Below, in pieces: positions 3,577 to 26,244 of a DNA stretch of 64,000 nt (position 1 is the first letter of the stretch; each line of letters begins with the position of its first letter). The position numbers and the translations under genes are program-made. Where the stretch lies: NCBI GenBank assembly GCA_964648295.1, contig CAZYNH010000001.1:197180-261179 (forward strand), written 5' to 3'. The notes under the pieces are model-generated. The model saw only the letters and a list, made by a program, of their open reading frames with translations. It had not been told where the DNA came from and searched no databases. Source of the stretch: an uncultured Bacteroidia bacterium (GTDB taxonomy: Bacteria > UBA4055).

Positions 3577-5377
3577 TAACCTTAAAATTGAATTCTTTAT
3601 TCATTTTTTCTTCATAAATGGATTTCATTTTTGACGCGAGAGAAGGGTTCTGTTTTATCAGGTTCGTCTTTTCATCGGGGTCTTTAATTATATCGTGAAG
3701 CTCATAGGCCACCTCATCGCTTCCCGGCAGCACGCTAAGCTTGAAATCACCCCTTATCATGGCTCTGTTCAGGCGCGGATATATTTCTTTCTCCGCAAAA
3801 ATATTCTTTGATACATAACCTTCTTCATTTTTAAAATAAACTTCATCGTTGAATTTAATTGGCGTAACATCCGTTATCACAATATCCTGCCTGACAAACT
3901 CCGGATCGAAAAATGATATGCCGTCAAGCGCGGCTCCGGGTGAAACAACTCCGGCGGCGTCAAGAACAGTGGGCAGAATATCTAAAGAGGAATAATCGTT
4001 CTTAACGCTTCTTTCGATTTTAAATTCAGGAGAACTCAACACGAACGGCATCCTGTAGTCAGCCGCTCTGACCGTATTTTTATATGCAGGCAGCCCGAAC
4101 AGGCATATAACTGTATTTTCGTATTTGCCTGATGACTTTAATCTTTGATAAATATCATTTATTTCATCGTTAAGATAATTTAAAAACGCGTCCTCCGTGC
4201 TTTCGAACCTTGATGTCCTGTAATACGGAAAAGGAAGTCGGTCGTTCTGGTCAGAAATAACATAAAGGAACATGAATTTGTTTTTCCCGGATATAAGATC
4301 GGATATCTTGCCCTTCATATAGGTCTTATCCCTGTATCCGTCAAGTATAAGCGCCTCCGGAAAGACTTTTATCATTGTCCTGCTGTTATATACAACAGGC
4401 ATCAGGAAATGGGCGGAAAGAACGCCGGCTTTGTATATTTCCATTTTCGTAGGATATTTTACAAGATATTCGTTATTATCCTCGAATCTGCTGAAGGCAT
4501 ATTTCCTGTCTGTGAATGTTCCCGTGGAATACCCTCTTTCTCCGAGAATAGAAAAAACCGTTCTTCCCTCCAGTCCGTAACTTCTGTAACCGCCGGTATA
4601 ATTACCTTTTTCCGGGTGAACTGATGTGAGTACGGAAAGAAGCGAAACTCTGGGGTGGTTCGACACGCTGAAACAGTTGGAGAACCGGTATGAACTGCCC
4701 GTAAGCTCCTTAAGCGCAGGAAGGGCGTTTATTTTTCTCCCCGAGATCTGTTTGTATGTAAGGTTCTCGACGCCGATAAAAATAATATTCTTCTGCTCTT
4801 TTACCTCAAGCGCGTTAAGGTATCCGAAATTGAATATTAAGGCTATGCCCATGCCTATAGATAATGAATACGATATGATCCGTTTTGCGCCCTGATATAT
4901 TGAAAGATTATACAAAAGATTATGGATGCTCATAAGTATTATGATGAAGAAGAACACCGTAAAATACAGAGGCGAAAATTTATCTCTTAGAAAAGAGAAC
5001 ACATGATAGAACCAGAATGAGCCGCTGAGGAGACTTTCGGAAAACAGTGCGGGATGATTTATAACTTCTCTTGCGGTAAGTGAAAACAAGGCCAGAAACG
5101 ATATGCCCGCGTTCTTTAAAAAGTATTTGTGATACTTATCCTGTTCACTTTCAAAATAAAATGAGTATTTCTTTCTTTTTCTAGCCAGTATTCCTGCGCT
5201 TATCCCGCCCGTTATCAGCCCCAGGGCGGTGTATGAGATAAAAACTTTAAAATGCTGCAAAAAGAACACTTCCGCGCCCGCCTCTCCCTCCTGATCCGAT
5301 ATCAGCATGCCAGTAAAAAAGAATATCCAGACCAGTATCAGAGCGGGAAGAGTATTTTTTATCATCCTTTTGAGCAT
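3554..5377 (-). CDS. membrane-anchored sulfatase / alkaline-phosphatase-superfamily (LtaS-like) hydrolase/transferase
   Basis: N-terminal TM helices followed by a soluble domain with NIIFIGVENLTYKQISG and SNCFSVSNHPRVS motifs. The ORF track extends to 5491, but the ATG (MLKRMIKNT) abutting the AI-2E stop is the more likely start. Confidence 0.5.
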   Translation of the reverse strand: MLKRMIKNTLPALILVWIFFFTGMLISDQEGEAGAEVFFLQHFKVFISYTALGLITGGISAGILARKRKKYSFYFESEQDKYHKYFLKNAGISFLALFSLTAREVINHPALFSESLLSGSFWFYHVFSFLRDKFSPLYFTVFFFIIILMSIHNLLYNLSIYQGAKRIISYSLSIGMGIALIFNFGYLNALEVKEQKNIIFIGVENLTYKQISGRKINALPALKELTGSSYRFSNCFSVSNHPRVSLLSVLTSVHPEKGNYTGGYRSYGLEGRTVFSILGERGYSTGTFTDRKYAFSRFEDNNEYLVKYPTKMEIYKAGVLSAHFLMPVVYNSRTMIKVFPEALILDGYRDKTYMKGKISDLISGKNKFMFLYVISDQNDRLPFPYYRTSRFESTEDAFLNYLNDEINDIYQRLKSSGKYENTVICLFGLPAYKNTVRAADYRMPFVLSSPEFKIERSVKNDYSSLDILPTVLDAAGVVSPGAALDGISFFDPEFVRQDIVITDVTPIKFNDEVYFKNEEGYVSKNIFAEKEIYPRLNRAMIRGDFKLSVLPGSDEVAYELHDIIKDPDEKTNLIKQNPSLASKMKSIYEEKMNKEFNFKVINGYVLK

Positions 5378-10284: not shown

Positions 10285-10303
10285 TGTACGAAAAAATCGT
10301 ACA
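10285..10303. promoter_or_regulatory. perfect palindrome TGTACGA-N5-TCGTACA (candidate operator) 81 nt upstream of the ATPase/Toprim operon
   Basis: The sequence tgtacga aaaaa tcgtaca is read directly from the window. An identical-arm copy lies at 19438-19456. Confidence 0.6.
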
Positions 10304-10377
10304 GTTATTATAAATTCATTTGTCACTTTTATTTAAATTAGTTATATTTCGGATGTTGCGTCAGGAATTGAAATTCA

Positions 10378-11487
10378 TTGGAAATGACAATGATCGAAAA
10401 ACTTAAAATATTTAATTACAGAAGCCTTGAAAAGCTGGAATTGAATTCCCTGCTTAAAGTTAACCTGATAACCGGCAAGAACAACACCGGGAAATCAACA
10501 ATTCTCGAAGCCCTTGCTTCTTTTGCCGCAAAGGGTGATCTGAAGGTTTTATTCGAACTGCTCGAGGAGAGAGGCGAAGTTTATAAGCAAAATGAAATTG
10601 ATAGTAATCCAATAGAATACAATATTAAAACATTTGCATCGTTATTTACGAAAAGAGATGATAAGAGAAAAATAGATATTAAAGTCAGCGATGAGAATAA
10701 AGAGACTACATTATCCTTAAGGATAGTAAAGTATAGAGAAGAAAAAATACAGGGTGCAAATTCTGATGTGCCGAGAAAGAAAATCATTCTTGAAAATGGC
10801 AGCGGTGAAAATATTCTCGACTATCTTATGGGATTAGAAATCAAGAACGGCGGCGGCAGCTATATTTTACCATTGGATGAAGAAAAAATAAACAGGTTTG
10901 GTTTTAAAGGATTTAGTGAGCCTAAAAATTTTCAGTTTATCAGGCCGCGCGGATTAGAAACAAATATAAATCTGTCGTTATGGGATAGTATTGTTCTTAC
11001 TTACAAAGAGCAGTCCGTAATTGAAGCTTTAAGAATTATCGAGCCGGAAATTCATAAAATAACCTTCAAAGAAGACGGCGCGAACAACAGAAAAGCCGTA
11101 ATCAAATTATTGAACGATCCGGTTCTTATTCCTTTGCAAAGTATGGGTGACGGTATAAACAGGATACTTACGATTATTCTTGCAATGGTGAACTCCGATA
11201 ACGGTTATTTGCTTATAGACGAATTTGAAAACGGTCTGCATTATTCGGTTCAGGAAAAATTGTGGGAAATAATTTTCAGCTTATCTGAAAAATTAAATGT
11301 ACAGGTTTTTGCCACCACTCACAGCGAAGACTGCATTTCCGGTTTTGAAAAAATTATAAATAAGCCCGGCTTGGAATACAAAGGTAAATTGATCCGGCTT
11401 GAAAATGACGGCGGTTTTATAAAACAGGTGGAATTCGACAAAAACGAACTAAAAATTGCTTTTGAAAATAATATCGAAGTCAGATAA
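10378..11487 (+). CDS. AAA_21-type ABC ATPase (OLD/PARIS AriA-like). Likely true start is ATG 10384 or 10390
   Basis: Walker A motif (GKNNTGKST), Walker B/D-loop (LLIDEFENGLH) and an H-loop (ATTHSED). The stop TAA overlaps the ATG of the next gene. Confidence 0.8.
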   Translation: MEMTMIEKLKIFNYRSLEKLELNSLLKVNLITGKNNTGKSTILEALASFAAKGDLKVLFELLEERGEVYKQNEIDSNPIEYNIKTFASLFTKRDDKRKIDIKVSDENKETTLSLRIVKYREEKIQGANSDVPRKKIILENGSGENILDYLMGLEIKNGGGSYILPLDEEKINRFGFKGFSEPKNFQFIRPRGLETNINLSLWDSIVLTYKEQSVIEALRIIEPEIHKITFKEDGANNRKAVIKLLNDPVLIPLQSMGDGINRILTIILAMVNSDNGYLLIDEFENGLHYSVQEKLWEIIFSLSEKLNVQVFATTHSEDCISGFEKIINKPGLEYKGKLIRLENDGGFIKQVEFDKNELKIAFENNIEVR

Positions 11488-12113
11488 TGGGATCGAAAAA
11501 AGGATTAAGCAAAATACTACTCGTAGAAGGTAAAAATGATCAGCATGTTGTATGGTCGCTCTGCAGCAAGTTTAATATTCCGGAAAATTTTGATGTAGTT
11601 GATTGCGAAGGAATTGATAAACTAATTGAACAGATCCCTGTAAGATTTAAACAATCCGGCATCGAAACTATAGGTGTGATAATTGATGCAGACACCGATC
11701 TAAATGCTGCATGGCAAAAAATCAGATCGGTCTTTTTAGCTCAGAGCTGTCCGGTTCCCGAAAACATCCCCTCTGACGGTCTGATATGTGAAAATTCCGG
11801 CGGAATAAAAACCGGAGCTTGGATCATGCCTGATAATAATTTGAACGGAATGATCGAGGATTTCATTTCGTTTCTTATTCCCGAAAACGACAGCCTTTTG
11901 CCTATTGCAGAATCAACTCTTCAAAGTATTGAGCTTAACAATCTTAATAAATATCCTTTAAACCATAAATCAAAAGCGAAAATTCATACATGGCTTTCGT
12001 GGCAGGAAGTACCGGGCACACCTTTGGGGCTCGCAATCACAAAAAGATATCTCACGACCGACAACGATGCCTGTTTAAAGTTTATTACCTGGCTAAAAGA
12101 TCTTTACAAGTAA
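11487..12113 (+). CDS. Toprim-like nuclease-domain protein (DUF4435/DUF3226-like, OLD-family Toprim)
   Basis: Motifs ILLVEGKND and IIDADTD match a Toprim E...DxD signature. Translationally coupled to the upstream ATPase gene. Confidence 0.6.
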   Translation: MGSKKGLSKILLVEGKNDQHVVWSLCSKFNIPENFDVVDCEGIDKLIEQIPVRFKQSGIETIGVIIDADTDLNAAWQKIRSVFLAQSCPVPENIPSDGLICENSGGIKTGAWIMPDNNLNGMIEDFISFLIPENDSLLPIAESTLQSIELNNLNKYPLNHKSKAKIHTWLSWQEVPGTPLGLAITKRYLTTDNDACLKFITWLKDLYK

Positions 12114-12281: not shown

Positions 12282-13127
12282 ATGAAAAATTTTTTAATCA
12301 TTTTATTCTTCAGTATTTTATTCACTGCCACATATTCAAAGACCATTTACGGTGAATACACTTATTCTTACGGTGACGATGAAACATTGACAACGGCTAA
12401 GCAGAAATGCCAGACATTAGCTAAAAGGGATGCTGTCGAGAAATTCGCTACATTCCTAAAAAGCGAGACTGTGGTAAGAAATTATCAGACTGAAAATGAC
12501 GAGATAATCGCCAACGCCGAAGCAATGGTGACGGATGTCAATATCATAGAAGAGAAAATAGACAAACTGAATACGAACATTTATTATAAGATCAGCGCAG
12601 AGGTTGATGAGAAAAAAATACTCGGCGTTTATGAAGCAAAAGAAAAGCTGAAACTCGAAAAGATCGAAGCCGAACGCAAAGCTCAGGAAGAAAGATCTGA
12701 AGCAGAGCGAAAAGCCGAAGCCGAAAGACTCGAGGCTGAACGGGAAGCGCAGGAATTAAAGCTCAAGGCGGATAAAGAGGCTCTTGAAGCAAAGCTAAAA
12801 CACGAAAAAGAACTTGCTGCGATAGAGCAGGAAACGGAAAAAATAAAGCTTTCCCGCGAGATCAACGAAAAAGACAGAAGGTTTTGGAGAACTCAGAAGT
12901 GGATAGCTCTCGGAGCATTTGCAGGTTCAGCAGGTCTGGGTACATATTTCAACGCTCAAGGATCATCTTACTATGACGACTATAAAAGCGCTACTTCAAC
13001 ATCATCTGCTGACGATCTTTACGATAAGGCCGACAGCAATTATCTATACAGAGATGTCACATTTTCAGTTTCACTCGTACCGCTGGGATATTTTTTCTAC
13101 GCATGGTATAAAGAAAGCCAGTATTAA
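12282..13127 (+). CDS. secreted coiled-coil protein with a C-terminal TM anchor
   Basis: Signal peptide MKNFLIILFFSILFTATYS. A low-complexity ERKAEAERLEAEREAQELK coiled coil and a C-terminal hydrophobic segment. Confidence 0.5.
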   Translation: MKNFLIILFFSILFTATYSKTIYGEYTYSYGDDETLTTAKQKCQTLAKRDAVEKFATFLKSETVVRNYQTENDEIIANAEAMVTDVNIIEEKIDKLNTNIYYKISAEVDEKKILGVYEAKEKLKLEKIEAERKAQEERSEAERKAEAERLEAEREAQELKLKADKEALEAKLKHEKELAAIEQETEKIKLSREINEKDRRFWRTQKWIALGAFAGSAGLGTYFNAQGSSYYDDYKSATSTSSADDLYDKADSNYLYRDVTFSVSLVPLGYFFYAWYKESQY

Positions 13128-13148: not shown

Positions 13149-16100
13149 ATGAAGAAATTTATTATCTCTCTAACAATAACAGCCTCTTTACTTATAATAT
13201 GGGCATGTACCGATCTGGAACACTCAAATCCGTTCGATTCCAGCTACGGTGATCCAGATCCGTTAAAAAAACTCGATCTGACAATCGAAAAAATTGACAG
13301 GATTAAACTAGTCTGGGACGATGATTATTACAGCAAAGACTCGAATTATACTTTTAAAATTGATAGAAAGCTGGGTGAAGACGGTTTGTGGGAAGAAGAT
13401 TATAAAATTTTCAAAAGCAAATACACTTCATTTACCGACTCTTCAGCCGGTATTGATCAGCTTAATTTTTATAGAGTCAAAGTAGCTTTTGATGGAAATA
13501 TTTCTGATCCTATTGAAGCATCGGTTCACAGCCCGTTTAATCCTCCGTCGAGTATTATTTTAAACAGAAAAGATATAAAAACAATTCAGATCAGCTGGAA
13601 TGACAATTCCAACGGAGAGGACGGCTTTAAAATTGACAGATATTCTAACGGCGCATGGGCAACAGGCTTTAAAACGCTTGGTCAGAACGCTACTACTTGG
13701 ACGGATTCCGCAGCCGTTCTTAACGATTCTATCAGATACAGGATCTACGGCTTCAGAAAGTCATATAACTCGCAAATGGCTATGACGAACCTGATAGACA
13801 ACACAATCCCGGCACCGTCTAATCTTTCTGTTCAGCAGAATGATGTAAGCACTTTCGAGCTTAACTGGACTGACAACAGCACCGGAGAACAGGGTTTTAT
13901 AGTAGAAAGAAGCATTGACGGCGGCTCTTTCTCAGTTTTAAGCACTTTACCTGCGAATACAACATCGTATATAGACACTTCAGTCAGCAAAGGAAAAAGT
14001 TTATCCGATGTATCGTACAGAGTTGTATCTTATTACGGCACATTTAAATCAGCTTATACCGAGACTTCATCCGGAATAGAATTTCCCGCACCGGGTTCGT
14101 TGTCTTATGAAAAGCTTACAATTTCTTCCATTAAGCTTAACTGGGCAGACAACAGCCTGTCTGAAGACGGCTTTAAAATTGAGAAAAAGGTAGGCGGCGG
14201 TTCATGGACTGCTTACGCAACTGTAGCTAAAAATACAATTACATGGACAGATACGTCAGTTGAGATAAATCAGACCGTTCAGTACAGGATCTATGCTTAT
14301 AAAGGAATTAACACTTCTTCAATTACCGAAAGTTCTGTCATTGATAATACTTTCCCGGCACCGACAGGCATTACTTTCACGAAAGTTTCGGTCAGCTCAA
14401 TTAAGATAGACTGGCTTGATAATTCAAACGGAGAAGATGGGTTTAAAATTGACAGATCAGTCAACGGCACTTGGACAAATTCTTATGCTTCTTTAGCTGG
14501 AAATATTAAAACATATACAGATGCAAGCGCACCCATCAATTCTACGGTCATATACCGTGTTTATGCGTATAAATCAACAAGCGTATCTGCATCTGTTTCG
14601 ACAACATCAATAGTTAATACTTTTCCCGCTCCCACAAATCCGACAATTACTCAGCTTGCGGTAAATTCCGTCAAAATTGACTGGGTGGATAATTCCACCG
14701 GAGAGGACGGATTCAAGATTGATAAGAAGAATGATACCGGCGTCTGGACGACAGCCTTTGCATCTGTCGGCTCGAACATTACAACTTATACCGATAACGC
14801 AGCCGCGATATCCGACAGCCTTCAATACAGAGTTTACGGTTACAAAGGAACAGCATATTCAGCTTACGCTTATACAAGCGCATCCGACCTGACATTTCCG
14901 CCGCCTACAAATGTAACTTACACCAGACCGTCAATTATTTCAATAAAATTGGACTGGTTTGACAACAGTACAGGCGAAACAGGATTTAAAATTGACCGAT
15001 CGGTTGACGGCGGCGCTTGGGTTATTGCTTACGGCACTGTAAGCGCAGATGTTGTTACTTGGACTGATGCCAATGCGCCGATAAATAAAAATATTCAGTA
15101 CAGAATTTACGGTTATACAACCACAGACGCCTCCAGTTATGCCACTTCGGCAGTAATAACAAATACATTTCCTGCGCCTGTTCTTAATACTGTCACTCAG
15201 CAGACAGTAAGTTCATTTAAGCTTGACTGGTCTGATAATTCCACCGGAGAGGAAGGCTTTAAAATAGAAAGAAAGATTGACGCCGAAGCTTATGTTCAAA
15301 TAGCTTCAGTCGGTGCAAATATTATAACATATACGGACTCCTCGATAAATAAAAAAGGATATACAACTGTTTACTATAGGGTCAGAGCATTTAAAGGAAC
15401 CGATTATTCAACATACAGCGAAAAAACACAGACAATATCATTCCCTGCACCTTCAAATGTAGGTTATGTAAAAACCTCAGTAAGTTCAATTACAGTAAAC
15501 TGGTCTGATAATTCAAACGGCGAAGACGGTTTTAAGATTGATAAAAAAGTTGGATCATCAGAATGGGTATTAACCTACGGAACCACAGCCGCAAACGCAG
15601 TTTCGTGGCTTGATTCAAATGCGGAACCGAACACATCTATTCAGTACAGAGTCTATGCGTACAAAGGAAGCAATTCATCAACAGCGAGTTACAGCGCGAC
15701 AATTGACAACACATTTCCTGCTCCGCTTAATATTTCAACAGAAAAGCTGACAATATCTTCGATAAAAGTAAACTGGACTGACAATTCAACAGGCGAATCA
15801 GGCTTTATTATCGACCGGAAAGTAGGAGTTGAGGCATGGGCAGCTTATGACACAACGGCGGCTAACGCTGTAACTTGGTCAGATAACAGCGCAGTCATAA
15901 ACGCTAATTTACAATACAGGGTCAAAGGATATAAAAGCAGCTATTATTCTAATTATCTTGAATCTTCTCAGATCAGCAATATTTTTCCTGCTCCTACAAA
16001 TCTGATCCTGACTCAAGTCAAGAAACTTCAGAAGGCCGTAACCATCAGGCTTGACTGGACTGATAATTCAACAGGTGAAGACGGTTTTAAAATCTTTAAG

Positions 16101-17858
16101 AAGAACGATGTCGGGAACTGGAACGAAGCCGGTACTGTCGCGAGCAACACCAAAACATGGTCAGACGCCTCCGCAGTAATCAATGACAGCCTCGCTTACA
16201 GAGTTCTCGGATACAAAGGAACATATACTTCAACATACTCACAGGCAGATGTAAGCTCATTAACATTCCCGCCGCCCACAAACCTGACATTCACAAAACT
16301 CGACCTGAATTCCATCAGACTGAACTGGACGGATAATTCAAACATGGAAGACGGCTTCAAAATTGATAAAAAAGTCGGTGACAATGCATGGGTGACCGCT
16401 TATGCAACTACCGCAGCAAACGCTGTAACATGGACAGACGATAACGCAGATGTCAATCAGACCTTACAATACAGAGTTTATACATATTCAGGCAGTTTCG
16501 TATCCAATTATGTAGAAACAACAGCAATAGATAACACTTTCCCCGCACCGACAAATCTAACAACAACACAGATCAGCATAACAAGTGCAAATATAGCTTG
16601 GAATGACAACAGCACGGGAGAAGAAAAATTTGAAATTGAACGAAAACTCTCAGCCGATGCAACATATATCAAGATCGGTGAAGTAACAGGCAGCACCGCT
16701 ACAACAAAAGCATACACAGACACAACCGTAGTCCCTTCAAGCACTTATGATTACAGAGTAAAAGGAGTTTTTGGAACAAACTCTTCAGCTTACATAACAA
16801 AAACCGGATATGAAAACACATTCGCAGCGCCAACTAACCTAACAGCTTCAGTCGAATCTGAAACATCTATAAAACTAACTTGGACTGATAATTCAGTAGG
16901 TGAAGATGGCTTTAAGATTGATCGAAAAATTGGAGCAGCTGGCACATGGGTAACAGATTACGCATCAGTAGCATCGAATGTTTCAACATGGACAGATAAC
17001 GGATTATCTATTGGCATAACATATTATTATAGAGCCCGAGCATATAACTTAACATATAACAGTAACAACACAAGTGAAATCTATGCTGAAATCGCACCTG
17101 CTGGTTTTGTTTCAATTCCAATTGGCAGTTTTGATATGGGTCAAACTGGTGTAGAAATACCCGTTCATAATGTAAGTATAACAAGACCTTATTATCTTGG
17201 GAAATATGAAATAACTCAAAAAGAGTGGTTAACGATAATGGAGACAAATCCTGCCCACAATTATGGTGTAGGGGATAACTATCCCGTTTATTATGTTAGT
17301 TGGAATGCTATACTTGTATATTGTAACAAGCGAAGTATAACGGAAGGCTTAACACCGTGCTATAGCATAAACGGTAGTACAGATCCAACAACTTGGGGAA
17401 ACATTCCAACATCGAGTAGCTCAACATGGGACGGGGTTATCTGCAACTGGGAAGCAGATGGATACAGGCTACCTACGGAAGCTGAATGGGAATACGCAGC
17501 TCAGTATAATGACGAAAGAACATACCCTTGGGGCGAAACAATACCTTCAAGCGACTTATGTAACTATAACTCAAATGTCGGTTCAACTTCTATTATTGGC
17601 AGCTACCCATTAGGTAAAAGTAAGCTCGGTTTGTATGACTTGTCAGGTAATGTTAGAGAATGGGTCTGGGACTGGTTTAGCAGTTATACGAGTGATTCTC
17701 AAATTGATCCTACTGGGCCTGTCATTGTAGATGGAAATAGAATACAAAGAGGAGGTAGCTTCCCTTATGAAGGTGTGGTAACATGTTCAGAACGTACTGG
17801 TGCAAGTCCTTACATGGGTTACTATGATTATGGATTTAGAGTTGCTAGAACTAAATAG
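13149..17858 (+). CDS. giant lipoprotein: about 14 tandem Fn3-like repeats plus a C-terminal formylglycine-generating-enzyme (FGE/SUMF1) domain
   Basis: Lipobox LLIIWAC. About 95-aa units repeat the pattern TFPAPTNLT..SIKLDWTDNSTGEDGFKIDRKV..W...QYRVYAYKG. The C-terminus (about 17020-17858) has FGE-sulfatase motifs (YYLGKYEITQKEW, VSWNAILVYCN, GYRLPTEAEWEYAA, GNVREWVWDW, RIQRGGSF). Confidence 0.85.
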   Translation: MKKFIISLTITASLLIIWACTDLEHSNPFDSSYGDPDPLKKLDLTIEKIDRIKLVWDDDYYSKDSNYTFKIDRKLGEDGLWEEDYKIFKSKYTSFTDSSAGIDQLNFYRVKVAFDGNISDPIEASVHSPFNPPSSIILNRKDIKTIQISWNDNSNGEDGFKIDRYSNGAWATGFKTLGQNATTWTDSAAVLNDSIRYRIYGFRKSYNSQMAMTNLIDNTIPAPSNLSVQQNDVSTFELNWTDNSTGEQGFIVERSIDGGSFSVLSTLPANTTSYIDTSVSKGKSLSDVSYRVVSYYGTFKSAYTETSSGIEFPAPGSLSYEKLTISSIKLNWADNSLSEDGFKIEKKVGGGSWTAYATVAKNTITWTDTSVEINQTVQYRIYAYKGINTSSITESSVIDNTFPAPTGITFTKVSVSSIKIDWLDNSNGEDGFKIDRSVNGTWTNSYASLAGNIKTYTDASAPINSTVIYRVYAYKSTSVSASVSTTSIVNTFPAPTNPTITQLAVNSVKIDWVDNSTGEDGFKIDKKNDTGVWTTAFASVGSNITTYTDNAAAISDSLQYRVYGYKGTAYSAYAYTSASDLTFPPPTNVTYTRPSIISIKLDWFDNSTGETGFKIDRSVDGGAWVIAYGTVSADVVTWTDANAPINKNIQYRIYGYTTTDASSYATSAVITNTFPAPVLNTVTQQTVSSFKLDWSDNSTGEEGFKIERKIDAEAYVQIASVGANIITYTDSSINKKGYTTVYYRVRAFKGTDYSTYSEKTQTISFPAPSNVGYVKTSVSSITVNWSDNSNGEDGFKIDKKVGSSEWVLTYGTTAANAVSWLDSNAEPNTSIQYRVYAYKGSNSSTASYSATIDNTFPAPLNISTEKLTISSIKVNWTDNSTGESGFIIDRKVGVEAWAAYDTTAANAVTWSDNSAVINANLQYRVKGYKSSYYSNYLESSQISNIFPAPTNLILTQVKKLQKAVTIRLDWTDNSTGEDGFKIFKKNDVGNWNEAGTVASNTKTWSDASAVINDSLAYRVLGYKGTYTSTYSQADVSSLTFPPPTNLTFTKLDLNSIRLNWTDNSNMEDGFKIDKKVGDNAWVTAYATTAANAVTWTDDNADVNQTLQYRVYTYSGSFVSNYVETTAIDNTFPAPTNLTTTQISITSANIAWNDNSTGEEKFEIERKLSADATYIKIGEVTGSTATTKAYTDTTVVPSSTYDYRVKGVFGTNSSAYITKTGYENTFAAPTNLTASVESETSIKLTWTDNSVGEDGFKIDRKIGAAGTWVTDYASVASNVSTWTDNGLSIGITYYYRARAYNLTYNSNNTSEIYAEIAPAGFVSIPIGSFDMGQTGVEIPVHNVSITRPYYLGKYEITQKEWLTIMETNPAHNYGVGDNYPVYYVSWNAILVYCNKRSITEGLTPCYSINGSTDPTTWGNIPTSSSSTWDGVICNWEADGYRLPTEAEWEYAAQYNDERTYPWGETIPSSDLCNYNSNVGSTSIIGSYPLGKSKLGLYDLSGNVREWVWDWFSSYTSDSQIDPTGPVIVDGNRIQRGGSFPYEGVVTCSERTGASPYMGYYDYGFRVARTK

Positions 17859-17895: not shown

Positions 17896-18705
17896 ATGGA
17901 TATTTCAGAATTAATTCAAACAGTAGATAATGAATTCACCACAATTTTTTCATTCCCATTATTTTCCCAAATACCTGCTTCTAATATATCAGAATTGAAT
18001 AATCCTGTAAATGATAAAGATTCGTTTATTACAAGGCTGACTCAGTATAGTACGATTTTCGACAATTTCAATAAAAAAGAAATGGATACTATTACTGGAG
18101 GAAAAACACAAGGAACAAGAGAATGTTTAGAAAATTTTTTAAAAAGTAAACTAAAAAATGAACAAATATTTATTGATGACAAAATAATCAATCCGATGAA
18201 ATTATTTTGTCTTTTAAGAGATTACGTTGTTCATGGGAGAAATCGAAATAAAGGAAAAGCAATAAGCTATTTTAAGTTAAGTGATCCAATAGAAGACTTT
18301 GAGAGTTCTTGGAAAAGTGCCGTGTCAGTTTATCAAAGTATATTTCTCTCAATTTCATTTTTATTAAAATCTGTAAACCTAGAAACGATAAAATCATCAA
18401 AATTAAATAAAGAAACAGAAGATTTGCTAGTAAGACAGTTTATAGCTGATTGCTCTTATTATTTTGAAGATCGTAGAACAAATGCCTTGTTTAGAGAAAT
18501 AATAGAAAAAGGGCCTGTCTCAGATGTTGAATTGGCTAAGATTTTTAATATTAATGTAATTGAATTGCGGAGAATTCTTTATCCGTTTGTAGACAAACTC
18601 ATTTTAACGCAATACAAAGCTTACAATGAAACTTTAATCTCATTAAAACCCTACTTTTACGATTATAAAGATATTATTACTAAAGAAATGGCTGGTAATC
18701 CATGA
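17896..18705 (+). CDS. hypothetical protein with a HEPN-like R-x4-HG motif (putative Abi/toxin-type RNase)
   Basis: LRDYVVHGRNRN matches the R[DN]x[LV]xHG HEPN active-site pattern, which is also seen in this window's HepT (RNRLIHGY) and the MAE_28990-like protein (RNRLAHGE). AT-rich gene. Confidence 0.45.
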   Translation: MDISELIQTVDNEFTTIFSFPLFSQIPASNISELNNPVNDKDSFITRLTQYSTIFDNFNKKEMDTITGGKTQGTRECLENFLKSKLKNEQIFIDDKIINPMKLFCLLRDYVVHGRNRNKGKAISYFKLSDPIEDFESSWKSAVSVYQSIFLSISFLLKSVNLETIKSSKLNKETEDLLVRQFIADCSYYFEDRRTNALFREIIEKGPVSDVELAKIFNINVIELRRILYPFVDKLILTQYKAYNETLISLKPYFYDYKDIITKEMAGNP

Positions 18706-19328
18706 GAACAAAATTTCTCAAGGTAACGGATTCTTGTACTGAATTGTTTTATCTTATAATACAGTTTCAAGAATCAGATAAAGAATATCTGGATAAATGT
18801 GGACAGTCTTGCAGGTTAAAGATTATCATAAATTTATCAGATAAACCAGTATCATGTTTTTCTGGATACGATTTAGATGATAGGCGTGGGAATACAATTG
18901 CGAACCTTACGAAATTGATGGAAACGAATGGGACAATAAACGGATTAAAAGAAATAATACATAATACAGTAGATATAAGCCATTTACCTGACGAATTAGA
19001 TGTGGAAGAGGCACGGTGGGCATATATACACACAAACCTGAATCAAGATATAGATGATTCTTTAAATGAAATCATTGAGAATGTATGTAGCGATCGCAAC
19101 TATGGAATTACACTTAACAAATATATCTTTAAACGAATTGATCATGAATATACAATTCTTATTGTAGAAAAAGAATCTAATAAAGTAATTTACGAAAATA
19201 CATTTATTTCAGCAAATCCAAGTAAGATTTATAATAAATATTTATGGATTCCAATAGAAGAGATTTCAGATATAGATTTTATAAAATTTTATGAAGGAAA
19301 TAAAGGTGTTCAAAAAATTGAAGTATAG
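18702..19328 (+). CDS. hypothetical protein, translationally coupled to the upstream HEPN-like gene
   Basis: Start and stop overlap (ATGA). No recognisable domain. AT-rich. Confidence 0.45.
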   Translation: MRTKFLKVTDSCTELFYLIIQFQESDKEYLDKCGQSCRLKIIINLSDKPVSCFSGYDLDDRRGNTIANLTKLMETNGTINGLKEIIHNTVDISHLPDELDVEEARWAYIHTNLNQDIDDSLNEIIENVCSDRNYGITLNKYIFKRIDHEYTILIVEKESNKVIYENTFISANPSKIYNKYLWIPIEEISDIDFIKFYEGNKGVQKIEV

Positions 19329-19437: not shown

Positions 19438-19456
19438 TGTACGAAGAAATCGTACA
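19438..19456. promoter_or_regulatory. second copy of the palindrome TGTACGA-N5-TCGTACA, about 80 nt upstream of the AlbA_2/HATPase_c_4 gene
   Basis: The sequence tgtacga agaaa tcgtaca is read directly. Spacing to the start codon matches the first site. Confidence 0.6.
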
Positions 19457-19534: not shown

Positions 19535-21184
19535 ATGCCTGATAAAAAAATGATAGATTTATTGCGTAGCCTCATCCAGACTTGGGAAAACGAGGTTATT
19601 GAGTTCAAGGAAGCGAATGATAATTTTCCGACTTCAGATATCGGGAAGTATTTTTCTGCTCTGTCGAACGAGGCTAACTTGAGAGGTAAAGATCGTGCGT
19701 GGCTTGTGTTCGGTGTTCATAATAAAACCCGAAAGATTGTCGGTACTGATTATAGGATGGAACCGGAAAGGCTTCAGAGTCTTAAGATGCAGATTTCGCA
19801 GAATACTGAACCTACTGTTACTTTTCGTAATATTCATGAAGTATTTACGGACAGTTTGAGGGTGATTTTGTTTGAAATTCCTTCTGCGCCGATTGGTATT
19901 CCTATTTCATGGAACGGGCATTATTATTCTCGCTCCGGTGAAAGCTTGGTTTCTCTCGGCTTGAATAAGCTCGATGAGATCAGAAAGCAGACTTCGGCAT
20001 CTGATTGGACGGCAAAGATAATTGATGAAGCTACGGTTGAGCATCTTGACCCTGATGCTATTGAAAAGGCTCGTGAGGCTTACGGAGAAAAATATTCAAA
20101 CCGCTTTACAGAATCAGAAATAAAAAAATGGTCTGTGCCTGTTTTTCTCGACAGGGCAAGGCTGACTATATCGGGTAAGATCACAAGGACTACTTTGATC
20201 CTTCTCGGTAAAAAAGAATCGTCGCATTTTCTTCTTCCCTATCCGTCTCAGATCACATGGAAACTTGAAGATAAAGAAAGAGCTTACGAACATTTCGCGC
20301 CGCCTTTTTTATTGAGTACTTCCGAGCTTTATCAAAAAATAAGAAATTATCAGATCAGAATTCTGCCTGAAAACAGCCTGATCCCCGTTGAAGTTTCCAA
20401 ATATAAACAGAGAGTTATTCTTGAAGCTCTGCATAACTGTATAGCTCATCAGGATTATACAAAAAATTCCAGAATTATCGTAACTGAATATGCGGATAAA
20501 CTTTCTTTTGAGAATGTAGGCAGTTTTTATGAGGGCTACCCTGAAGATTATATCGCCGGGACAAAAACACCGCACAGTTATAGAAATTCTTTTCTTGCTC
20601 AGGCGATGGCCGAGTTAAAAATGATAGACACTTTAGGCTATGGCATTCATGAAATGAATACGGAACAAGCGAAAAGATTTTTTCCGTTGCCTGATTATGA
20701 TCTTTCGGAGCCGGGAGTTGTCAAAGTTTCAATATACGGAAAAGTATTCGATCCTGCTTACAGCAACCTGCTCATACAGAATCCCGATCTTGCGTTAGAG
20801 GATATTATAGCTCTTGACAGAGTTCAGAAAAAGCTTCCTTTGACGGATGAAATGATAAAAAGGTTGAGGAACGCACAGCTTATAGAAGGCCGGAAGCCGA
20901 ACTTTCACATTTCGCTAAAAGTCGCGAAAGTGACAGACAAGAAAGTTGACTATATAAAAACCAAAGGCTTTGATGATTCATACTGTAAAGACTTGATACT
21001 TGAGTTCATAAAAAAATGGGGTGAAATATCCCGCAAACAAGCTGAAGATCTTCTTTGGGATAAATTGCCTGATATTTTAGATGATAAAGCTAAATTCAAT
21101 AAGGTTACTTATATTTTGCAGAGTCTGAAAAAAGATAACTTCATATTTTTAGGAAAAGCTAAAAAATGGAAAATAAATTTATAA
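19535..21184 (+). CDS. Schlafen/AlbA_2 DNA-binding domain + HATPase_c_4 domain protein (putative ATP-dependent transcriptional regulator)
   Basis: N-terminal 'divergent AAA/AlbA_2' motifs (EFKEANDNFP..., AWLVFGVHNKT). The C-terminal HATPase_c_4 N-box is EALHNCIAHQDY. Confidence 0.75.
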   Translation: MPDKKMIDLLRSLIQTWENEVIEFKEANDNFPTSDIGKYFSALSNEANLRGKDRAWLVFGVHNKTRKIVGTDYRMEPERLQSLKMQISQNTEPTVTFRNIHEVFTDSLRVILFEIPSAPIGIPISWNGHYYSRSGESLVSLGLNKLDEIRKQTSASDWTAKIIDEATVEHLDPDAIEKAREAYGEKYSNRFTESEIKKWSVPVFLDRARLTISGKITRTTLILLGKKESSHFLLPYPSQITWKLEDKERAYEHFAPPFLLSTSELYQKIRNYQIRILPENSLIPVEVSKYKQRVILEALHNCIAHQDYTKNSRIIVTEYADKLSFENVGSFYEGYPEDYIAGTKTPHSYRNSFLAQAMAELKMIDTLGYGIHEMNTEQAKRFFPLPDYDLSEPGVVKVSIYGKVFDPAYSNLLIQNPDLALEDIIALDRVQKKLPLTDEMIKRLRNAQLIEGRKPNFHISLKVAKVTDKKVDYIKTKGFDDSYCKDLILEFIKKWGEISRKQAEDLLWDKLPDILDDKAKFNKVTYILQSLKKDNFIFLGKAKKWKINL

Positions 21185-21290: not shown

Positions 21291-21358
21291 GTTATAGTTT
21301 TGGAAATTTGGGATTTTATTCGTATATTATCGTTTGGAAATTATAAAGGGTTTCGGTT

Positions 21359-21667
21359 ATGATGTCGAAAGCAGATATAGTAAAAAAAATCAGGTCGAAA
21401 AAACGATTAATGAGATCTTTGGGCATTTTAAAGCTGTCACTTTTCGGTTCTGCTCTTAACGATACTCAGGATGAAAACAGCGATATTGATCTTTTGGTTC
21501 AGTTCGAAGGCAGTCAAAGTCTTTTTCGCATAATAAAAGCTCAGGAAGAGTTAAAAAAATATTTAGGTAAAGAGGTTGATCTCGTCACGGAAGATTCTCT
21601 TTCGGTATATTTTAGAGATAAAGTTATGAGCGAGATGGAGACTATTATAGATGAAAAATCCCGATAA
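21359..21667 (+). CDS. mntA: nucleotidyltransferase-family antitoxin (MNT/MntA-like)
   Basis: LSLFGSALNDTQDENSDIDLLVQFEG is the minimal-NTase GS...DxD motif. It overlaps the downstream HepT gene. Confidence 0.85.
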   Translation: MMSKADIVKKIRSKKRLMRSLGILKLSLFGSALNDTQDENSDIDLLVQFEGSQSLFRIIKAQEELKKYLGKEVDLVTEDSLSVYFRDKVMSEMETIIDEKSR

Positions 21668-21980
21668 TAAAAAGCTTGTTTTACATATCAAAGATGCCTG
21701 CGAGAGTATTTTCAAATTCATAGAAGGTAAAAATTACGACGATTTTTCCAAAAATGACATGCTTTTAAGCGCGGTTATAAGGAAACTTGAAGTAATAGGA
21801 GAAGCTTCCTCGAAAACAACGGATGAGTATCGTAATGAGAACAAAGAAGTGCCGTGGTCAATTATGATCGGCATGAGAAACCGGCTCATTCACGGTTATT
21901 TCGGTGTTAACAGTAAGACGGTCTGGGATACAGTTAAAGAAGATATTCCGATTCTTTACGATAAAATCTTAAACCTTTAA
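21651..21980 (+). CDS. hepT: HepT/DUF86 HEPN toxin
   Basis: The RNRLIHGY (Rx4HxY) motif. Its size and gene overlap with the MNT partner fit a type VII toxin-antitoxin pair. Confidence 0.85.
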   Translation: MKNPDNKKLVLHIKDACESIFKFIEGKNYDDFSKNDMLLSAVIRKLEVIGEASSKTTDEYRNENKEVPWSIMIGMRNRLIHGYFGVNSKTVWDTVKEDIPILYDKILNL

Positions 21981-22095: not shown

Positions 22096-23472
22096 ATGAA
22101 TGACATGAACAGGATAGAAACTCAGTTTAAAGATAAAATCAAAAGTTTTCTAAACCAGAATTCGTTCAACACATGGATCAAACCGGTAAAGATCGTCAAT
22201 ATTGACGGAGAGAACATTTCTTTTCAGGTGCCGTCAAAGGTGCATATCGACTATATCAAAGGACAGTACAGGTCGGTTTTCGAAAAAACGCTTAAGGAGA
22301 TACTCTCAAGCGAGAATATCAATATTAAATTTTTGATCGACTCTGATACCGACTTTAATTTTGAGACTAAAACAGGGACGGAAGTCGCAGTAAAAAAACC
22401 AAAAGAGATATCAAAGGGAAGAATAGCCCCGTACAAGGAAACTTCTTTAAACCCGAAATACACTTTTGAGAATTTTGTCATGGGTAACGGCAATGAAACG
22501 GCCTATGTGTCCTCTCTTCAGGTCGCCCAGAATATAAAAAAGACCCAGTACAATCCGCTTTTGATCTTCGGAGGAGTGGGCCTCGGAAAAACGCATCTTG
22601 TTTCCGCGATCGGGAACCATGTTTTTAATCATGATCCCAATATGAAAATACTCTATATGACATCGGATATATTCGTGTTCCAGATAATCAACCACATAAA
22701 AAACAAAACTATTGATGATTACAAAGCTTACCTGAGAACGAAAGACCTTATCATAATCGACGATATCCAGTTCTTCGCCAAAAAAGACAAGAGCATGGAA
22801 GAGCTTTTCCATATCTTCAATTACATTTATAACAGCGGGGGCCAGATAGTCCTTACTTCAGATTTCCATCCCAATGAGATACACGAGCTTGACGACAGGC
22901 TTAAATCAAGGTTTAAAATGGGTTTAATAACAGATGTTAGGGCTCCGGATCTTGAGACGAGGGCGGCTATAATCCGACTCAAGGCGGAAGAAATAAGTTT
23001 CAACCTCGATGATGATATCGTTATGTTCATTGCCAATAATATAAACACGAATGTCAGAGATCTGGAGGGTGCGGTAAAGAAACTGTATTTCCACCATTCG
23101 CATTTTAACAAAGAGATAAGTATCGGTAAGGCGAAAGAAATATTAAAAGAACTTATCACATCAAAAAAATCGACCCTTAATATTGATAAGATACAGGATA
23201 TAGTCTCTGAATTTTTCTCCATCCCTAAAGATCTTTTAATGAAAAAAACAAGAACGAAAGAAGTGGCAGAAGCAAGGGCTGTCGCAATGTATCTCTGCAC
23301 AACTCAGCTTAAAGCTACTACCACAAGTATAGGCGTGCATTTCGGCGGAAGGGAGCACAGCACAGTATCACATGCCGCGGCCAAAATACAGAAAAAACTG
23401 AGCGCGAAGGATCCTGAAACTGTCAAAATGATAGACGAGATACTTAATGTGATTAACTTATCAACATGTTAA
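22096..23472 (+). CDS. dnaA: chromosomal replication initiator DnaA
   Basis: AAA+ Walker A (GGVGLGKTHL), sensor and box VII motifs, and a C-terminal DNA-binding domain (KEVAEARAVAMYL...). Followed by dnaN. Confidence 0.95.
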   Translation: MNDMNRIETQFKDKIKSFLNQNSFNTWIKPVKIVNIDGENISFQVPSKVHIDYIKGQYRSVFEKTLKEILSSENINIKFLIDSDTDFNFETKTGTEVAVKKPKEISKGRIAPYKETSLNPKYTFENFVMGNGNETAYVSSLQVAQNIKKTQYNPLLIFGGVGLGKTHLVSAIGNHVFNHDPNMKILYMTSDIFVFQIINHIKNKTIDDYKAYLRTKDLIIIDDIQFFAKKDKSMEELFHIFNYIYNSGGQIVLTSDFHPNEIHELDDRLKSRFKMGLITDVRAPDLETRAAIIRLKAEEISFNLDDDIVMFIANNINTNVRDLEGAVKKLYFHHSHFNKEISIGKAKEILKELITSKKSTLNIDKIQDIVSEFFSIPKDLLMKKTRTKEVAEARAVAMYLCTTQLKATTTSIGVHFGGREHSTVSHAAAKIQKKLSAKDPETVKMIDEILNVINLSTC

Positions 23473-23668
23473 CAGGAAGGTTTTGTGAATAATTTTTATG
23501 ACAGGTTATACACCCTGTATTCAAAAGATATAAACACGATCTCTGACAGATCCGGTTTTATATCTTTTTATTATTCCGAGGATTATAGAGTTATTCACTT
23601 ATCGCCGGAGTTAATATTTAACAATAGGATTATTTAAATAAATTAAATTTATAAAAAAGGAGAAAAGA
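23473..23668. promoter_or_regulatory. candidate oriC segment (dnaA-dnaN spacer) with DnaA-box-like 9-mers and an AT-rich DUE
   Basis: tgtgaataa at 23484-23492 is the reverse complement of TTATTCACA. ttatacacc lies at 23506-23514 and ttattcact at 23591-23599. Each is within 1 mismatch of TTATNCACA. The 3' part of the spacer is very AT-rich (ttaatatttaacaataggattatttaaataaattaaatttataaaaaa). Confidence 0.45.
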
Positions 23669-24787
23669 ATGATATTTTCGACCCTTAAATCGAACCTGAT
23701 GGCACAGTTGTCGCTTATAAATCCGATACTGCCGTCTCACAGCGCAAAACCGATAACGGAGTGTGTGATACTGTCTCTTAAAGAGAACGAACTGACCATT
23801 ACCGCCACAGATATTTCCGTTACTCTGGTAAATAAGATAGAGGTCAACGGAGTAGAGAACGGAACGGTCGTAGTACACGGTAAGAAATTTATAAATATAA
23901 TTAAAAGTCTGCCGGATGTTGTACTTACCGTTAAAAAGGACGGCGGTGTTGTGAAGATCATCTCCAATAATATAAAATTCGAGCTGGCGGTTACAGAGGA
24001 TTATGAAGATTTCCCGGCCACCCCGAAAAGCCTTTCGGGTAATTATATGGCAATAGATTCACTCAAACTGAAGAATTATATTGAGAAGACTGTTTTCACT
24101 GTATCTCCCGACCAGTTAAGGGCTGTTCTGACAGGCGTGCTGTTCTCGCTCAAGTTAAATCAGCTTACAATGGTAGCAACGGACAGCGTGAGGCTGGTTA
24201 AGCTGGATGACAAGAGCATCAGATATGAAGGCGAAGATACAGATATGATACTCCCCGCCAAATCACTTCAGATAATTTCGAACGCGATAGACAGAAATGA
24301 GGAAACAATGATTTATTTCGAAGAAAATTATGTTGAGTTCCGGTTTGGCAGCGTAACGATATTCTCGAGACTAATAAACGGAAAATATCCCGCATACCAG
24401 GCAATAATACCCGCTAATAATCAGCTGAAAGCGAAATTCGATAAAAACACAACGATCTCCGCGATAAACAGGGTAGCTCTCGCATGCAACCCGGTCACAA
24501 AACTGATAAAATTCAATCTTGAAGCAGGGCAGCTGCTAATCAACACCGAGGACAGCAATTCGTCATCAAGAGCTGAGGAGAGTATCCCATTAGATTATGC
24601 GGGGGAAAAAATGCTTATCGGGTTCAATGCCGGAAAAATTGTCGAGCTTCTTAAAAATATAAGCACAGAAATGGCGCTTATGGAGATCAATAACGGAAAA
24701 AAACCGGTAATTATAAAACCCTACGAATCGACAGAAAGTTATGAAATCATGATGCTTCTGATGCCGTCATCCGTAGAAAATTCATAG
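23669..24787 (+). CDS. dnaN: DNA polymerase III beta sliding clamp
   Basis: Position after dnaA. Three-domain clamp length of about 370 aa with typical N-terminal sequence. Confidence 0.9.
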   Translation: MIFSTLKSNLMAQLSLINPILPSHSAKPITECVILSLKENELTITATDISVTLVNKIEVNGVENGTVVVHGKKFINIIKSLPDVVLTVKKDGGVVKIISNNIKFELAVTEDYEDFPATPKSLSGNYMAIDSLKLKNYIEKTVFTVSPDQLRAVLTGVLFSLKLNQLTMVATDSVRLVKLDDKSIRYEGEDTDMILPAKSLQIISNAIDRNEETMIYFEENYVEFRFGSVTIFSRLINGKYPAYQAIIPANNQLKAKFDKNTTISAINRVALACNPVTKLIKFNLEAGQLLINTEDSNSSSRAEESIPLDYAGEKMLIGFNAGKIVELLKNISTEMALMEINNGKKPVIIKPYESTESYEIMMLLMPSSVENS

Positions 24788-24802
24788 GATCGCCGGAAAA
24801 GA

Positions 24803-25906
24803 ATGAAACTTAAGAAAATAGAGCTTTCGAATTTCAGGAACTATGAAAAACTGGAGCTGGAGTTTAAAAAGAACATAATATGCTTAACCGGGCTCAACGG
24901 ACAGGGAAAGACCAATATTGCGGAAGCTGTATCTGTTTTGGGTCTGCTCAACAGTTTCAGGACATGCAGTTATTCGGAAATGGTCAGGTTCGGAGGCGAC
25001 TGTTTTTTTATTAAAGGGGAATTTACGAATACGGACAAAAGAGATATAGAGGTCAGTATAAGCTTTGACGGCGCTACGAAAAAGATCATGTATCAGAACA
25101 AAAGGGTATTGAGATTTTCCGAGATATGGGGAAAAATACCGGTGATCTATCTTATACCTGACGAAAGTATAATAACGACAGGCCCGCCCAACGCGAGACG
25201 CGATTTTTGCGACAGGCTTATTTCAATGACAGATCCCGGGTATTTGGCGCTGCTGAACGAGTATTCGGCGGTCGTTAAACACAAGAACAGGGTTATATCC
25301 GATATCCGGTCAGGCGACAGTTCCGCCGCCGACATGATTAGTGTCTATAACACAAAAATAGCAGCCGCGGGATCTGAGATATTTTTGAGAAGAATGAAAT
25401 TTATATCTGATTTTCTGCCCTGTTTTAAAGAGATTCTTCTTTTTATTTCCGACGGTTTGTATGAAGGTAACATAGCCTATGAATCGATAATGGAAAAAGA
25501 CGATTATAAAAATGACCTTTCACGGCTTTTAAACGAACAAAAAACGCAGGAGATCAGACGGGGCGTATCTTTCCTCGGGCCTCACAAAGATGATCTTGAA
25601 TTCGAAATAAACGGTAAGTCTTTGAGAAAGTTCGGCTCAAAAGGGCAGCATAAACTATTCCTCGTGGCTCTTAAACTGGCGGGAACCGAGTATATAAAAT
25701 CGGTAACTGACGAATATCCGATATTCATACTTGACGATCTCTATTCTGAGATAGACGAGAATAAAAGCCTGAAAGTAGCAAGGATTCTGGACAAGGATAT
25801 CCAGACTTTTATTACAACAAGCAACAGCAGAATAGTCGACCAGCTTGACCCGAATGTTTCGGAGCTGTTCATGGTGGAGAACGGAAAATGCGCGGCGGTG
25901 TTCTAG
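24803..25906 (+). CDS. recF: DNA replication/repair protein RecF
   Basis: SNFRNY and GLNGQGKTN Walker A motifs, an SMC-like signature and a C-terminal FILDDLYSEID Walker B. Confidence 0.9.
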   Translation: MKLKKIELSNFRNYEKLELEFKKNIICLTGLNGQGKTNIAEAVSVLGLLNSFRTCSYSEMVRFGGDCFFIKGEFTNTDKRDIEVSISFDGATKKIMYQNKRVLRFSEIWGKIPVIYLIPDESIITTGPPNARRDFCDRLISMTDPGYLALLNEYSAVVKHKNRVISDIRSGDSSAADMISVYNTKIAAAGSEIFLRRMKFISDFLPCFKEILLFISDGLYEGNIAYESIMEKDDYKNDLSRLLNEQKTQEIRRGVSFLGPHKDDLEFEINGKSLRKFGSKGQHKLFLVALKLAGTEYIKSVTDEYPIFILDDLYSEIDENKSLKVARILDKDIQTFITTSNSRIVDQLDPNVSELFMVENGKCAAVF

Positions 25907-25907
25907 A

Positions 25908-26228: not shown

Positions 26229-26244
26229 ACCGGAGGAAAAATAA

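Follow-up and report, generated by a model that had tools for sequence, protein, structure and literature searches.

A two-gene ABC ATPase and DUF3226 cassette of the PDC-M38 family upstream of dnaA in an uncultured Bacteroidia bacterium, a probable split OLD-type ATPase-nuclease

Introduction

An ABC (ATP-binding cassette) ATPase and a protein of the Toprim type are combined in the systems OLD, Gabija, PARIS, AbiL, MADS and HEC-01/04, which act in defence (PMC11464382; bioRxiv 10.1101/2024.01.29.577857; PMC12881386). Here we analyse a gene pair of related layout, termed genes A and B, on a 64,000 nucleotide (nt) stretch of DNA from an uncultured Bacteroidia bacterium (GenBank assembly GCA_964648295.1, contig CAZYNH010000001.1, positions 197,180 to 261,179 of the forward strand), which as a whole is referred to as the window. 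We consider it probable that this locus is a self-contained, mobile two-gene cassette of the candidate family PDC-M38, in which an OLD-type ATPase-nuclease is split into two polypeptides and is directed against phages or other mobile genetic elements.

The closest described enzymes are the OLD proteins of classes 1 and 2 (BpOLD, 6NK8; XccOLD, 6NJV/6NJX; TsOLD, 6P74; P2 Old; GajA), single polypeptides that carry an ABC ATPase together with a Toprim/helical catalytic region. The two-metal site of BpOLD is formed by E400, E404, D455-x-D457, T506/E508 in the helical domain's first helix, and K562 (PMC6755086). Class 2 OLD proteins, as in Gabija, have a UvrD-like helicase as partner. PARIS (AriA/AriB; OLD class 4) consists of two genes for an ABC ATPase plus a Toprim effector; its trigger is the anti-restriction protein Ocr, and tRNA-Lys is cleaved. 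Helical and coiled-coil insertions of AriA (IS1, IS2) build a hexameric scaffold and recognise the trigger (PMC11464382). The effector partners that Burman et al. gave for AAA15/21 defence ATPases are TOPRIM-Old, DUF4435, RloB, DUF4276, UvrD, DUF262, DUF3996, HNH and RVT, and DUF3226 is not listed among them (PMC11464382). For AbiL, the effector AbiLii was reported to superpose on the OLD structure 6NJV (PMC13064643), and HEC-01B was reported to share the metal site of BpOLD (bioRxiv 10.1101/2024.01.29.577857). The PDC families are 145 'guilt-by-embedding' candidates of Payne et al., defined by their embedding inside defence systems (bioRxiv 10.1101/2024.01.29.577857; PMC12881386).

Results and Discussion

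The Gene Pair Is a Member of PDC-M38, a PADLOC Candidate Family

Genes A and B are two open reading frames (ORFs) in different frames of the same strand (Table 1). The PADLOC hidden Markov model (HMM) for PDC-M38A (PDLC04611) matched gene A with an E-value of 4.2e-96 (residues 5-369 against 1-383 of 383), and the model for PDC-M38B (PDLC04624) matched the adjacent gene B with 2.4e-68 (residues 6-207 against 11-218 of 220). In Pfam, gene A was matched over its full length by AAA_15 (3.8e-25) and AAA_21 (1.6e-19), and gene B over its full length by DUF3226 (PF11536; 1.3e-69, 234.6 bits at a gathering threshold of 27, residues 8-207 against 1-207 of 208). Because the Pfam and PADLOC matches extend over the full length, A and B are real genes and not chance ORFs. 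Judged by these profiles the pair is an intact and clean member of PDC-M38 and not an undescribed variant. A sequence-only reading of this DNA had taken it for a compact or divergent new variant of a two-component module, which does not hold for a family that is already catalogued; 'compact' is better understood as an OLD protein in two parts, with gene B (208 amino acids, aa) about as long as the catalytic region of BpOLD (residues 390-594).

The ORF coordinates given in that reading are exact, and its motifs (GKNNTGKST, LLIDEFENGLH and ATTHSED in A; ILLVEGKND and IIDADTD in B) were all found. For gene A it counted 369 aa, which is indeed the maximal ORF from TTG 10378 to 11487; the start in homologues and in the publicly available annotation of the source contig, however, is ATG 10390 (MIEKLKIFNYRSL..., 365 aa), and this is probably the true one. 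The stop codon of gene A (TAA, 11485-11487) and the start codon of gene B (ATG, 11487-11489) have one base in common. Such a junction appears suited to translational coupling, and the earlier description of a TAATG overlap that couples an ABC ATPase to a Toprim-type protein is borne out by sequence and profiles.

The limits of the cassette were set by blastn comparison to a locus (L001) of the metagenome-assembled genome (MAG) UBA4055. The two sequences are 83% identical over 10293-12113, and the match stops exactly at the stop codon of gene B. A promoter-like site was found in the conserved leader, and its -10 element is part of a block without differences between the window and L001. From its consensus match this site may function as the promoter of the pair.

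Gene B Is Predicted to Fold Like the Catalytic Region of OLD Nucleases

The structural model of gene B (pLDDT, the predicted local distance difference test, 88; predicted template modelling score, pTM, 0.85) consists of two halves, one beta-alpha-beta and Toprim-like (residues ~8-120), the other helical (~123-206). In a Foldseek comparison to the PDB, the top matches were the C-terminal catalytic regions of the class 2 OLD structures 6nk8, 6njx and 6njv, with probabilities of 1.00-0.94 and whole-chain template modelling (TM) scores of 0.46-0.56. Class 1 OLD (6p74) followed, and then AriB (8ux9_A, probability 0.51); the TM score is 0.31 to AriB versus 0.54 to the OLD C-terminal region. The predicted fold is that of the Toprim and helical catalytic region of OLD nucleases. 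A weak match to the Pfam family OLD-like_TOPRIM recurred in 50 of the 56 members of the gene B family (best 5.6e-4). Together with the Foldseek ranking this supports the previous view of the E...DxD core as an OLD-like Toprim. The label DUF4435/DUF3226-like, which had also been given to gene B, was correct for DUF3226, while the Pfam search at E<=1 yielded no match to DUF4435.

Residues E14, G15, D18, D67, A68, D69, E124, D125 and K163 of gene B are invariant. The Toprim glutamate is followed by an acidic residue at +4 (E14 to D18 in gene B versus E400 to E404 in BpOLD), the distance from the glutamate to the DxD motif is 53 residues versus 55 in BpOLD, and the distance to the acidic pair at the first helix after the Toprim half is 110 versus 108. 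The later invariant lysine is K163 in gene B and K562 in BpOLD. That all predicted metal-binding acidic residues of B are invariant argues for catalysis.

Gene A Encodes a Predicted Rad50/SMC-like ABC ATPase

In an alignment of gene A with 52 homologues, the Walker A motif (G29-S36, with G29, N31, N32, G34, K35 and S36), the signature-like motif S251-x-G-D-G255 and the Walker B motif with D-loop (D277-E278-F-E-N-G-L-H284) are invariant. The same is true for T309, T310 and S312 of the H-loop, and nearly so for H311. The AlphaFold model (pLDDT 77.6, pTM 0.79) is of the Rad50/SMC-head type, and its best Foldseek matches (~1e-13 to 1e-10) were Rad50 heads (1e-13), retron PtuA, GajA, retron-Eco8 and SMC heads. 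Between the ATPase lobes, residues ~94-250 are modelled mostly as beta-strand with two short helices and no long coiled-coil. Gene A is thus predicted, from alignment and model, to be a catalytically intact Rad50/SMC-like ABC ATPase.

Among the other PADLOC models, AbiLi (PDLC02336) fitted gene A over its full length (1e-63, residues 5-369 against 1-340 of 340). The AriA models matched weakly (~1e-24), and a phmmer comparison to the solved AriA aligned the C-terminal ~80 residues only (250-327, ~1e-6). Matches to HEC-01A were partial and ranged from ~1e-16 to 1e-18 (best 5.6e-18).

Comparison with Related Systems

Structurally we see no difference between the A/B pair and PDC-M38, a candidate family that came without a published fold, active site, distribution or plasmid carriage. 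With OLD classes 1 and 2 the pair has the combination of ABC ATPase and, as predicted for gene B, Toprim/helical catalytic region in common, and A and B together (573 aa) amount to about one single-chain OLD; the statement that the proteins are shorter than single-chain OLD is right for each protein alone and not for the two together. OLD, however, is one polypeptide, whereas A and B are separate, coupled proteins. Among the best 150 representative homologues of gene B none is longer than 251 aa and none is fused to an ATPase. The beta-rich insert in the gene A model is a further difference to OLD, as is the partner of OLD class 2 and Gabija: no UvrD-like helicase adjoins the A/B pair. The gene downstream (12282-13127) encodes a coiled-coil protein that has no Pfam match, and no helicase recurs among 139 neighbours of the family. 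Unlike OLD and PARIS, the PDC-M38 pair is also rarely phage-borne.

The sequence-only reading had suggested a PARIS-like variant. The two-gene layout is indeed the same, and the two proteins are, as had been remarked, shorter than their PARIS counterparts (365 aa for gene A versus 464 aa for the solved AriA chain, 208 aa for gene B versus 306 aa for AriB). The likeness of the ATPases is weak, the effector is DUF3226 and not DUF4435 as in AriB, and the long coiled-coil insertion of AriA contrasts with the beta-rich insert (~94-250) of the gene A model. The AriB HMM gave no match to gene B itself and marginal matches to 4 of its 56 relatives. Membership in PARIS was rejected on these grounds: no DUF4435 or AriB match in gene B and a different ATPase insert.

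AbiL, compared here together with ATPase/Toprim pairs of the RloAB type, fits on the side of the ATPase and differs in the effector family. No model for AbiLii/RloB in Pfam or PADLOC matched gene B or any of the 56 family members at E<=1, and membership in AbiL was rejected on the effector. HEC-01, a candidate system of ABC ATPase and TOPRIM that was found embedded in Hma, follows the same two-gene logic. HEC-01B matched 42 of the 56 gene B homologues weakly (best 2.7e-4; gene B itself 0.0058), and apart from HEC-01B only AriB and mad4 gave marginal matches across the gene B family. Since PDC-M38 is matched much better than HEC-01, we regard HEC-01 as a separate family.

Distribution, Pairing and Mobility of the Family

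Homologues of gene B form at least 1,806 clusters at 90% identity. An exhaustive search (E<=1e-3) yielded 2,617 clusters at 50% identity, almost all of them with proteins of 200-230 aa. Homologues with ~60% identity appear under the labels Bacteroidota, Planctomycetota and Limnohabitans, and such identity across distant phyla points to horizontal spread.

Pairing was scored in 98 fetched loci, of which 71 had enough upstream sequence. A homologue of gene A lies immediately upstream on the same strand in 69 of these 71; the remaining two also carry A, one as a truncated copy and one at a gap of ~127 nt. Junctions could be scored in 65 loci: a 1-nt overlap was found in 36, an ATGA overlap in 3 and a gap of 0-12 nt in 22, while no ATG start was assigned in 4. 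Sequence identity to homologues runs in parallel for A and B (85% and 83% in MAG UBA4055). As far as these loci go, A and B are always co-oriented, paired and co-evolving, and this is a trait of the family.

The cassette is accessory and horizontally mobile by the same kind of comparison. Every flanking gene of the 83% identical UBA4055 copy differs from those in the window, and in Foetidibacter, Flavobacterium, a MAG labelled Limnohabitans and others the neighbours are unrelated housekeeping genes. The 139 nearest neighbours, taken from 60 non-redundant loci, contain each Pfam or PADLOC family 3 times at most and no recurrent recombinase. The accessory status proposed before is therefore confirmed by the low GC content and by a context that differs in the UBA4055 copy and in every other genome examined; neither a conserved core-genome context nor an assignment of gene B to a non-nuclease family was found.

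A search of 50,697 phage records gave no homologue, IMG/VR contained one weak locus only (33% identity), and gene B has no PHROG. In contrast, 123 plasmids carry the pair, 113 of them from Klebsiella. On more than 100 non-mobilizable ColRNAI (ColE1-type) Klebsiella plasmids of ~4.1 kb the pair is the sole cargo: pKpnB4_4 of Klebsiella pneumoniae (4119 bp; L015) and ~110 similar plasmids from clinical Klebsiella carry only rop, a helix-turn-helix gene, the ATPase gene (371 aa) and the gene for the DUF3226 protein (210 aa). PADLOC assigns these plasmid-borne pairs to PDC-M38 as well. The pair goes unmentioned in a review on small plasmids of Klebsiella. The Plesiomonas copy comes after P2-like tail genes. 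Plasmid pAHTJR2 of Acinetobacter haemolyticus (L016, 2014-3858) has the pair beside BrnT/BrnA, and here the ATPase gene has two frameshifts, while gene B is intact. If this is no sequencing artefact, this single case suggests that cells can survive the nuclease subunit when its ATPase is missing.

Two metagenome loci carry a second ATPase gene of the AAA_15/21 type directly upstream of the PDC-M38 pair (L032, 5024-6765; L051, 37-1158). The one in L051 is another PDC-M38A-like copy, and the one in L032 comes with a partner of its own (181 aa). This partner was considered as a bridge to gene B and was rejected, as there is no similarity between the two. From their sequences, ATPase-based modules are occasionally arranged in tandem.

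Proposed Function and Alternative Explanations

In the reading that we favour, A and B would form a complex. Dimers of A would sense a cue derived from the invader by ATP binding and hydrolysis and would gate B, which in turn would cleave nucleic acid by the two-metal Toprim site E14/D18, D67-x-D69 and E124/D125, helped by K163. The outcome would be immunity to phages or mobile elements, reached by cutting the invader's DNA directly or through abortive infection. Several points weigh against this reading. On the sequence level, OLD-like_TOPRIM matched gene B itself with 0.024, below the Pfam threshold, and sequence profiles give no significant link from gene B to any solved Toprim: phmmer and a 56-sequence profile run against the PDB sequences returned chance matches only (phycoerythrin, CcmA, L9). 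The Foldseek E-values for gene B are modest (3e-3), and the active site, which would follow the OLD two-metal site, was mapped by order and spacing and not by residue-level superposition. Searches of a literature library for DUF3226, PF11536 and PDC-M38 yielded no paper and no tested family member. HEC-01 as the nearest tested analogue gave no protection in one study (bioRxiv 10.1101/2024.01.29.577857); in a later study it was protective against at least one of T4, T5 and T7 (PMC12881386). As housekeeping genes make up most of the chromosomal neighbours, an argument from association with defence islands carries little weight as well, and the pair is nearly absent from phages. Complex formation, trigger and substrate, finally, are predictions.

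Of the alternative explanations, a PARIS-like toxin-antitoxin or abortive infection module deserves most attention, and we regard it as unlikely. An oligomer of A would sequester B, a phage protein would trigger ATP-dependent release, and free B would cut host tRNA or other RNA and thereby arrest growth. Such a module would share the layout of AriA/AriB, the matches of gene A to the AriA models and, with its C-terminal 80 residues, to the solved AriA point in this direction, as do the presence of AriB among the structural matches of gene B and the marginal AriB HMM matches in its relatives, and the position as sole cargo of small plasmids would be compatible with a toxic effector and its neutraliser. 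On the other hand, gene B lacks a DUF4435 match, is about 100 residues shorter than AriB and is structurally closer to OLD, and the insert of the gene A model is beta-rich. A free AriB-like toxin should also not tolerate the situation on pAHTJR2, with a frameshifted ATPase gene beside an intact gene B, which is one case in which a sequencing error is possible. On thin separating evidence we prefer a stable holoenzyme of the OLD/Gabija type that acts on DNA to a tRNase that is sequestered and then released, because B is nearer to the OLD region than to AriB, the model of A has no long coiled-coil, and B persists beside a broken A on one plasmid.

A role in the maintenance or competition of plasmids or other mobile elements (addiction, or exclusion of rival replicons) that is not primarily phage defence seems improbable. 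It would explain why 113 Klebsiella plasmids, mostly ~4-kb non-mobilizable ColRNAI plasmids, have no other cargo, and it would be in line with the BrnT/BrnA neighbour on the Acinetobacter plasmid, with the near-absence from phages and with chromosomal copies that stand singly among housekeeping genes, outside of defence islands. Most members, however, are found in chromosomal, non-mobile contexts in which no integrase, transposase or replication gene recurs; moreover, the nearest families of known function are phage defence systems, and the PDCs were defined by embedding in such systems. Very improbable, in our opinion, is a housekeeping pair for DNA repair or recombination like RecF (ABC ATPase) and RecR (Toprim), or a Toprim that binds its substrate and does not cut. 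The ABC ATPase and Toprim logic is parallel in RecF/RecR, the window includes dnaA-dnaN-recF-gyrB, and for Cran1, an OLD-family ATPase of archaea, a cell-cycle role rather than one in defence is reported (PMC12796447). This explanation is made less likely by the sporadic distribution, the variable context and the anomalously low GC content, by a bona fide RecF already encoded at 24803-25906, by the invariance of the predicted metal-binding acidic residues of B, which favours catalysis, and by ~60% identity across distant phyla, which indicates horizontal transfer.

Beyond the split OLD-type nuclease preferred here, we tentatively propose that the pairs of AAA_15/21 ATPase and DUF3226 protein could represent a distinct and very large fifth OLD-like branch. 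This branch would be obligately split, with a free nuclease subunit gated by a compact ATPase that has a beta-rich sensor insert and no coiled-coil, and with its own trigger and substrate. In clinical Klebsiella it may be the selected cargo of one lineage of ColE1-type plasmids (~4 kb), where its role would be phage defence or conflict of plasmids with other plasmids or with phages.

If PDC-M38 is a working defence system, a widespread class from several phyla would be added to the immunity based on ABC ATPase and Toprim in OLD, PARIS and AbiL, and DUF3226 would gain a function. A naturally split OLD would also allow to dissect, subunit by subunit, how the nuclease is regulated by the ATPase. 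As more than 100 small plasmids of Klebsiella have the pair as sole cargo, it can be tested directly in a host of clinical relevance. For the window itself the result is modest: it contains an intact example of a catalogued candidate in a low-GC stretch upstream of dnaA, the existence of which will not surprise a specialist.

Genomic Context in the Window

A ComM/Mg-chelatase-like gene, a threonine dehydrogenase gene and an aspartate kinase gene with a GC content of ~0.50 lie upstream of the pair. Over A and B the GC content is 0.35-0.37 versus ~0.50 upstream, and it remains low until about 25 kb. The low-GC accessory stretch (10.3-22 kb) runs up to dnaA. Because dnaA, dnaN, recF and gyrB are all located at 22096-28260, the window, by its gene content, spans the chromosomal origin region.

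Table 1. Features of the window around genes A and B
Feature	Position	Strand	Remarks
Palindrome TGTACGA-AAAAA-TCGTACA	10285-10303	+	2 nt after the aspartate kinase stop codon; flagged as terminator-like; left cassette edge
Portable two-gene cassette (promoter region, A and B)	10293-12113	+	limits set by DNA homology to UBA4055 locus L001
Promoter-like site TTGTCA-17-TATATT	10320-10348	+	in conserved leader; consensus scan, 10/12 matches
Gene A, ABC ATPase (AAA_15/AAA_21; PADLOC PDC-M38A)	10390-11487	+	365 aa; Pfam and PADLOC matches
TAATG stop/start overlap, putative translational coupling junction	11485-11489	+	seen in the sequence itself
Gene B, DUF3226 protein (PADLOC PDC-M38B)	11487-12113	+	208 aa; predicted OLD-type Toprim ~8-120, helical domain ~123-206
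Coiled-coil protein, EAERKA repeats	12282-13127		281 aa; no Pfam match
Secreted or lipoprotein-like protein	13149-17858		1,569 aa; ~14 tandem Fn3-like repeats ('W.DNS..E.GFKI.R'), C-terminal FGE-sulfatase domain
Overlapping gene pair	17896-18705, 18702-19328		269 aa and 208 aa; lowest GC of the window, 0.28-0.32; no Pfam/PADLOC match
Schlafen AlbA_2 (5e-16) and HATPase_c_4 (1e-10) protein	19535-21184		549 aa; weak partial match to PADLOC pAgo model
MNT-type nucleotidyltransferase and HepT toxin-antitoxin pair	~21362-21980		
dnaA	22096-23472		
dnaN	23669-24787		
recF	24803-25906		
gyrB	26245-28260		

The palindrome at the left edge of the cassette has exactly one further copy in the window, at 19438-19456 with one mismatch in the loop, versus 0.01-0.05 expected by chance. 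Each of the two precedes the start of an accessory gene by ~80-95 nt, one at the PDC-M38 pair and one at the Schlafen/AlbA_2 gene. The homology to the UBA4055 cassette begins inside the palindrome, and only its right arm is conserved there. None was found in 96 loci of other genomes. From its sequence the palindrome is most simply a terminator-like hairpin or a genome-specific repeat at the boundary, and it may act as terminator, operator or recombination scar. The shared upstream palindrome of the sequence-only reading is thus real and present in two copies; as a feature of the system it was rejected, since both copies are from this genome and the 96 loci of other genomes have none.

The overlapping gene pair at 17896-19328 was considered as a diverged second copy of A/B and rejected, as the hhalign probabilities were 0.1-0.2%. 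The surrounding stretch had been described as accessory with defence-like genes, which is fair. MNT/HepT and the Schlafen/AlbA_2 gene are indeed close by, but it also harbours the Fn3/FGE giant and a lipoprotein, and 'defence island' would be an overstatement.

The DNA at 21292-21692 is 82% identical to positions 4281-4685 of the UBA4055 locus L001. A non-coding RNA was rejected for this segment: it has no Rfam family, tRNA or transfer-messenger RNA and encodes MNT/HepT. In UBA4055, MNT/HepT is situated directly upstream of the PDC-M38 pair, while the two are ~9 kb apart in the window. The comparison suggests linkage of the two modules in one relative and their separation through insertions in the window.

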